Below are positions 51,497 to 53,043 of a DNA stretch of 64,000 bases, piece after piece. Source of the DNA: Escherichia coli (GTDB taxonomy: Bacteria; Pseudomonadota; Gammaproteobacteria; Enterobacterales; Enterobacteriaceae); NCBI RefSeq assembly GCF_003334815.1, contig NZ_QOWO01000007.1, one strand, 5' to 3'. The notes beneath the pieces are model-generated. The model ran no database searches and was not told the origin of the DNA. It saw nothing but the letters and a program-made list of their open reading frames with translations. The translations under genes and the position numbers were made by a program. Numbering within the stretch: the first letter of the stretch is position 1; each line of letters starts with the position of its first letter.

Positions 51497-52432
51497 TTAT
51501 TTCACTTCAACCACATTCAGCCGTAACTCATCCAACTGATTTTCATCTTCTTCTGGCTGCCAGCACGCCGGTTGTAGTGGGATCTCTTCGCGATCAAACG
51601 CCAGATCACCCCCGTTAACCACTTCAGAACCGTGGGTGATGCCTTTGAAATCGAACAGGTTGGTATCGCACAGATGCGACGGCACCACATTCTGCATCGC
51701 GCTGAACATCGTCTCGATACGCCCTGGATAACGTTTATCCCAGTCACGCAACATGTCAGCAATCACCTGACGTTGCAGGTTAGGCTGTGAACCGCACAGG
51801 TTGCACGGAATAATCGGGAACGCTTTTGCATCGGCAAATCGCTGAATATCTTTCTCGCGGCAGTAGGCCAGCGGACGAATAACGATATGTTTGCCATCAT
51901 CGCTCATCAGTTTCGGAGGCATACCTTTCATCTTACCGCCGTAGAACATATTTAAGAACAACGTTTGCAGGATATCGTCACGATGGTGACCCAACGCGAT
52001 CTTCGTCGCCCCCAGTTCCGTTGCGGTACGATAAAGGATACCGCGACGAAGGCGAGAACACAGTGAGCAAGTGGTTTTGCCCTCTGGAATCTTCTCTTTC
52101 ACGATACCGTAAGTATTCTCTTCAACAATCTTGTACTCAACGCCCAGCTTTTCAAGATACTCGGGCAGAACGTGTTCCGGGAAGCCCGGTTGCTTTTGAT
52201 CGAGGTTAACAGCCACCAGCGAAAAATTGATTGGCGCGCTTTGCTGCAAATTGCGCAGAATCTCCAGCATGGTATAGCTGTCTTTACCCCCGGAGAGGCA
52301 AACCATGATGCGATCGCCTTCTTCAATCATATTGAAGTCAGCAATGGCTTCGCCCACGTTACGACGCAGACGTTTTTGTAATTTGTTCAGGTTGTATTGT
52401 TCTTTCTTACTAATTTCTTGATTTTGCGACAT
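51497..52432 (-). CDS. ttcA: tRNA 2-thiocytidine(32) synthetase TtcA, 311 aa, uninterrupted
   Basis: ORF 51497..52432; PP-loop CLSGGKDS and Cys-x-x-Cys motifs; N-terminus [17 protein letters not shown]. Confidence 0.93.
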
Positions 52433-52576
52433 TTAAAAGCGACTCAATTCGTTATATGGCATCAGAAGAGTATGCGTCATGCCGGAACGCCCAGCATAAG
52501 AAATCTGATATAAAAAACTGTGGCGTGTATGGTACGGATTAGAGGGGAAAATGTCAGCACATTTGCGAAATGAATC

Positions 52577-52601
52577 AAAAAGCCCGCAGCAATGTGCGGG
52601 C
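52577..52601 (-). terminator. Rho-independent terminator of uspF
   Basis: Minus strand: GCCCGCA-cauugc-UGCGGGC followed by UUUUU. Confidence 0.65.
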
Positions 52602-52608
52602 GTTAGTG

Positions 52609-53043
52609 TCAGCGCACAACCAGCACGGAGCACTCTGCGTGACGCACTACAGCTGCGGCGTTGGAACCGAGCAGATAAGTGGTGATATCCGGTCGATGGG
52701 AAGCAATGATGATCATATGAGCGGGGATCTTCTTCGCCAATTCCAGAATGCGGTCTTTGGGCGAGCCTTCCTCAACATGGACATGCACTCTGTCGGTTGG
52801 CAGTTTAAATTTTTTAATGATCTCTTCCAGTTGCGATTTGGCTTCCGCTTTCAGGTCATCCATTGCCGGTAATTCTGCGGAATACGCTAAACCCAGAGAG
52901 GCATAGTAGGGCAGTGAAGGTATTACCGTCAGGAAATGAACCTCTGCATCATCAATCTTTGCCTCTTCCTCAACGTGGCTAATCACGCGTTGAGTTAATT
53001 CTGAATCGGAAATATCGATAGGGACAAGAATCGTTCTGTTCAT
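52609..53043 (-). CDS. uspF: Universal stress protein F, 144 aa
   Basis: ORF 52609..53115 trimmed to ATG 53043 ([10 protein letters not shown]...) with AGGAGG Shine-Dalgarno. Confidence 0.92.

Follow-up and report, generated by a model that had tools for sequence, protein, structure and literature searches.

An unoccupied Rac-family prophage attachment site inside the 5' end of ttcA in a natural Escherichia coli close to K-12

Introduction

In E. coli K-12, the genes ttcA and uspF lie on either side of the Rac prophage, and in the DNA considered here they adjoin directly. This raises the question of whether the contiguous junction is the genuine, unoccupied attachment site of Rac-family prophages, and not an engineered deletion or a coincidental likeness, and whether the lineage that carries it was ever occupied. 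Both the phage-free site and its effect on TtcA are already known from K-12 (Liu et al. 2015, Sci Rep 5:16074, PMC4632033). In that study, excision of Rac, whether natural or induced by XisR, altered four N-terminal residues of TtcA, the cause being an imperfect match between attL and attR, and the resulting form, TtcA', was regarded as the ancient copy. That IntR and XisR recombine this site is taken from the literature; the anatomy of the site, its junctions and the frequencies of its states in the population come from the comparisons presented here.

Results

Genes and signals at the ttcA-uspF junction

The window, meaning the whole 64,000-nucleotide stretch of DNA that was analysed, carries dbpA (plus strand), ttcA (minus), uspF (minus) and ompN (minus), in that order, between positions 49995 and 54317. 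The features at and around the junction are the following.

51497-52432, minus strand: ttcA, tRNA 2-thiocytidine(32) synthetase, 311 aa in the list of open reading frames, with the native, phage-free 5' end
52433-52581, minus strand: native ttcA upstream region, presumed promoter, separated from ttcA in lysogens
52601-52582, minus strand: intrinsic-terminator-like hairpin of uspF from the terminator scan, GCCCGCACATTGCTGCGGGC, with 7 pairs, 6 of them G-C, then TTTTT
52609-53043, minus strand: uspF, universal stress protein F, 144 aa from the ATG at 53043 in the list of open reading frames
53184-54317, minus strand: ompN, from the list of open reading frames, beyond uspF

The two genes at the junction match NCBIfam equivalog models well above the curated cutoffs, with 513.5 bits for the TtcA reading frame against NF007972 (cutoff 272) and 302.2 bits for UspF against NF011581 (cutoff 166), the latter over the full length of 1-144. 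The uspF call also agrees with the RefSeq annotations of genomes that are 100% identical, and ttcA and uspF are the only genes annotated at the junction in such genomes. An earlier reading made from the letters and open reading frames (the sequence-only reading) had described ttcA as having a native 5' end, followed after 176 bp by the uspF terminator and gene, with no integrase or phage genes. The N-terminus MSQNQEIS is indeed of the phage-free type, and the start codon of ttcA and the stop codon of uspF are indeed separated by 176 bp (52433-52608); the terminator does not come after this gap and instead sits inside it. The absence of phage genes from the junction was borne out as well, with no integrase, excisionase or other phage gene among the open reading frames of 52433-52608, which are short and unsupported.

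The segment 52433-52581 is presumably the promoter region of ttcA. Scanning the 176-bp gap for promoters turned up one weak sigma-70-like match at 52557-52529 (CTGACA, a 17-nt spacer and TACCAT, agreeing at 9 of 12 positions), and the number of matches in the gap was not above shuffled expectation. With the whole window scanned against Rfam at the gathering threshold, no structured RNA was found in 52380-52620. Elsewhere in the window, three small RNAs scored above the gathering score, McaS at 46140-46235 (minus), FnrS at 49613-49730 (plus) and MicC at 54542-54662 (plus), all of them in their expected K-12 neighbourhoods.

The attB core and the K-12 prophage junctions

The reference chromosome for K-12 was NZ_CP132594.1. 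Its gene order runs dbpA, ttcA, intR, xisR, rcbA, ralR, recT and recE, on through trkG to stfR and tfaR, and at the uspF end of Rac it continues with pinR, ydfK (ynaE), ynaM, uspF and ompN. Annotation and alignment thus match the K-12 layout that the sequence-only reading had described, in which Rac sits at the 5' end of ttcA and the displaced fragment ttcC lies beside uspF. The alignment of the junction with both K-12 prophage ends, which that reading had proposed as a check, defines a core of 26 bp that is identical in the window attB, K-12 attL and K-12 attR.

52383-52408, no strand: attB core, TTGTTCAGGTTGTATTGTTCTTTCTT, covering ttcA codons 9-17
52409-52432, minus strand: ttcA codons 1-8, which would be replaced by an imperfect phage copy on Rac-type integration

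The core occurs once in the window and twice in K-12, where the two copies bracket Rac at a spacing of 23,060 bp (positions 5108 and 28168 of the K-12 locus, L002). To the left of the core, the window shows 0 mismatches in 5,100 bp against the host arm of K-12 attL (the ttcA side), and to the right it shows 1 mismatch in 3,834 bp against the host arm of K-12 attR (the uspF side). With kilobases of K-12 host arm matched on both sides, a chance match is excluded. From 52383 onward, the attR side of K-12, with ttcC, agrees with the window letter for letter. K-12 attL, which at this point bears an imperfect, phage-borne version of ttcA codons 1-8, departs from the window at 52409, 52410 and 52417, with further divergence from 52426.

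These alignments also bear on the idea that the ttcA-uspF junction is no true attachment site, with Rac integrated elsewhere or the likeness of the junctions coincidental. No support was found for it. K-12 annotation and junction alignment refute it by placing Rac exactly between the two copies of the core, thousands of genomes break at 52383 and 52425, and a sequenced, inducible phage holds a matching attP, which together leave this idea with next to no probability. The sequence-only reading had itself allowed for Rac lying at another locus, with an identical ttcA 5' end in K-12 and the window; Rac is in fact integrated at this site.

The N-terminal difference in TtcA that had been anticipated was confirmed at residues 2, 3, 6 and 8, with the protein beginning MSQNQEIS in the window and MQENQQIT in K-12. 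These four are the only differences between the two TtcA proteins across 311 residues, and they arise because the phage supplies a substitute 5' end. The MQENQQIT start is also present in BL21-type lysogens and in the B2 remnant.

Position of strand exchange within the core

Rac-family records in the phage collection include vB_EcoS-683R6 and Rac-SA53. In Rac-SA53 (KU052037.1), the same 26-bp position is annotated as attP/attB. Its attL reads from host sequence into TTGTTCAGGTTGTAT and then ATCTCTTTCTTCG, with phage sequence (ATCTC...) starting right after the 15-mer, and its attR reads from phage sequence into TTGTTCAGGTTGTAT and then TGTTCTTTCTTACTAAT, with host sequence (TGTTC...) kept. As attL switches to phage sequence after the 15-mer and attR keeps that of the host, strand exchange would lie within the following segment.

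52383-52397, no strand: narrowest segment predicted to contain the strand-exchange point, 15 bp, TTGTTCAGGTTGTAT, from the Rac-SA53 hybrid sites

This putative 15-bp crossover segment is drawn from one phage, Rac-SA53, and it assumes that the IntR proteins of SA53 and K-12 cut alike, their int regions sharing 96.2% DNA identity. Inverted core-type integrase binding sites of at least 6 nt were sought around the core and none was found, the only palindrome being TTTAAA at the ttcA start, and the exact overlap region is therefore not narrowed further.

Comparison with K-12 and wild isolates over the window

Given how close the flanks are to K-12, as the mismatch counts given above show, the window could be suspected of coming from a K-12 derivative that was engineered or cured in the laboratory, for example a delta-rac or reduced-genome strain, and a delta-rac K-12 would show the same junction. 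The rest of the window speaks against such an origin. It is collinear with K-12 over 64 kb except for Rac, one IS5, 19 SNPs and one 1-bp indel. An extra G at 23457 in the window keeps ycjV (22503-23585) intact as a 360-aa open reading frame, which is frameshifted in K-12, and a bare CTAA target stands at 37723-37726 between ynaI and ynaJ, where K-12 has a 1.2-kb IS5. The 24 kb surrounding the site recur with 100% identity in isolates from a tapir, humans, fresh water and cattle; E. coli C falls about one mismatch short of these isolates. With the SNPs, the ycjV indel, the absent IS5 and the identity to wild isolates, an engineered K-12 deletion, which the sequence-only reading had named as grounds for refutation, was in effect ruled out, and we consider descent from a K-12 laboratory derivative very improbable.

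The window thus almost certainly shows, in a natural E. coli near K-12, the unoccupied attB of Rac-family lambdoid prophages, which lies within the 5' end of ttcA. The attB at 52383-52408 would serve as a substrate for IntR, judging from its identity with sites that have been shown to recombine, namely the site that Rac excision forms in K-12 (PMC4632033), and with the attB annotated for Rac-SA53.

In another part of the window, the fnr region differs by one substitution, at 41022, from the intact gene of K-12. The BL21(DE3) record (NZ_CP053602.1; L008 13241-13993) lists fnr as a pseudogene that contains an internal stop.

States of the site among complete E. coli genomes

The survey set consisted of 5,426 complete E. 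coli genomes, 5,411 of which gave any match. Three states of the site were counted.

2,486 of 5,426 (46%): empty site, contiguous ttcA-uspF junction
about 1,044 of 5,426 (19%): 2.2-kb Rac remnant, attR deleted
about 1,880, by subtraction from 5,411: remainder, with a break at 52383 (uspF side) and at 52425 (ttcA side)

The genomes of the remainder are presumed to carry Rac-like prophages. In one further genome arrangement, seen in NZ_CP047461.1 (strain ZF34), an IS1 element at 477949-479326 interrupts an otherwise empty ttcA-uspF junction.

The remnant was first seen in MS 200-1 (NZ_CP146679.1; L003 1748-3992). In it, the N-terminus of TtcA is of the phage type, and 231 bp from the 3' end of intR are retained, along with a DUF1627 fragment and a fragment that is sitD-like. 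In genomes with the remnant, host sequence restarts at about window position 52529-52537, the deletion having removed the attR core and ttcC together with about 150 bp of native sequence upstream of ttcA. Since attR is deleted, the remnant is non-excisable and the phage-type 5' end of ttcA is fixed. A break near 52537, present in about 18% of genomes, was considered as a second attachment site and rejected, as it is the deletion endpoint of this remnant. Strain CFT073 was noted as an 'exception' by Liu et al. 2015 (PMC4632033), and the 2.2-kb remnant would probably explain it.

Occupancy history of the site

As precise excision is scarless, a site that was never occupied and a site from which the prophage was excised are indistinguishable from the junction. 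The sequence-only reading had taken the junction to be the ancestral, phage-free one; this holds for its sequence type, and the occupancy history of the lineage is not established by our comparisons. In order to weigh the two histories, divergence of the flanks and of the prophage was compared in K-12, BL21(DE3), ECCWS199 and Z1323PEC0012.

The empty site may be secondary, in that an ancestor carried Rac and precise excision by IntR/XisR restored attB, in which case the junction would be ancestral in its sequence and not in its history. Excision of Rac by IntR/XisR regenerates exactly this attB sequence (Liu et al. 2015, PMC4632033), and relatedness to lysogens points in the same direction. 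The window differs from Rac-bearing K-12 by 6 SNPs in 36.4 kb (0.016%), and either of the two differs from Rac-bearing BL21(DE3) by 0.30-0.31%, which places the window about 20 times closer to K-12. The Rac prophages of K-12 and BL21 are collinear in four blocks of 99.05-99.9% identity and differ by about 0.5% (54 mismatches in 10.6 kb), near the divergence of the flanks, and this agreement fits a Rac that predates the split of the K-12 and BL21 lineages. If Rac does predate the K-12/B split, the lineage of the window would have lost it. Wild isolates that carry Rac variants likewise have right flanks only 3-15 SNPs in 11.6 kb from the window. Against loss by excision, however, Rac variants on nearly identical flanks are about 1-3% from K-12 Rac while those flanks differ by about 0.02-0.03%. 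Which prophage the site contains therefore changes without regard to the flanks, and an empty site that was lysogenised independently is just as plausible. The much faster change of the prophage than of the flanks at this site may come from new lysogeny or from recombination. Parsimony is tied on the few genomes compared, and excision leaves no scar to examine. We give a past excision slightly less than an even chance, and the choice between a site never occupied and one excised stands at roughly even odds.

The Rac variants of wild isolates were viewed in NZ_CP148275.1 (L010 1-20026) and NZ_CP032237.1 (L009 1-20026), compared with the K-12 locus (L002 5108-28193). Their flanks are 0.02-0.1% divergent from the window and K-12, with Rac 1-3% from K-12 Rac. 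Their cargo also differs from that of K-12 Rac. It includes sitABCD, which adjoins attR, as well as hok, a P22-type capsid gene and a cytosine methyltransferase paired with an ATP-binding protein, and trkG is kept in all of the variants compared.

Discussion

In the mechanism that we propose for this site, the tyrosine integrase IntR would recombine the 26-bp core at 52383-52408 with the attP of the phage, most likely by a crossover in the first 15 bp of the core. The phage arm adjoining intR carries an imperfect version of ttcA codons 1-8 together with a start codon. Integration would then leave ttcA intact with four N-terminal residues and its upstream region swapped, and it would strand beside uspF the gene's own 5' end (ttcC) and the native sequence upstream of it. 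A swap of the ttcA promoter would be expected to accompany integration, and excision by IntR/XisR would be the exact reversal of these steps.

The closest known counterpart is the K-12 attB after excision, which encodes TtcA' (Liu et al. 2015). It has the same junction, the same 26-bp core, the same TtcA residues 2, 3, 6 and 8, and the same neighbours as the window, with dbpA-ttcA on one side and uspF-ompN on the other. The window differs from it in being a natural, non-K-12 sequence, set apart over 64 kb by 19 SNPs, its intact ycjV and the absence of IS5. Rac-SA53 (KU052037.1) shares the 26-bp position and the host arms, and its IntR and XisR (YdaQ) genes adjoin attL; its attP differs from the window attB at core positions 16-18 and at several positions beyond, and its prophage record is 52,291 bp in length compared with 23 kb for K-12 Rac. 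It is an even call whether two points of the present analysis go slightly beyond the published account, these being strand exchange within 15 bp rather than 26 bp and a remnant, in about 19% of genomes, that fixes the phage-type ttcA 5' end and would explain CFT073.

Phage 21 and e14, which integrate in icd, and the many phages that integrate in the 3' ends of tRNA genes carry a substitute for the gene end that they displace. Rac follows the same logic, in that an arm of attP duplicates the displaced part of the target and the gene stays functional in the lysogen. Unlike those phages, which replace a 3' end, Rac replaces a 5' end, including the start codon, 8 codons and the upstream region. 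As the ttcA upstream region is replaced, a Rac lysogen would also change what drives ttcA expression.

The practical value of the finding is limited, as the feature is textbook-level variation of the E. coli genome, present in nearly half of the sequenced strains. For the strain itself, the site marks it as Rac-free, without recET, kilR, ralR/ralA, racR, trkG and the other Rac genes. Both the N-terminus of TtcA and the region upstream of its gene are in their native form in this strain, and they have been linked to differing TtcA-dependent phenotypes (Liu et al. 2015, PMC4632033). Judging from its sequence, the site would still be open to lysogeny by Rac-family phages.
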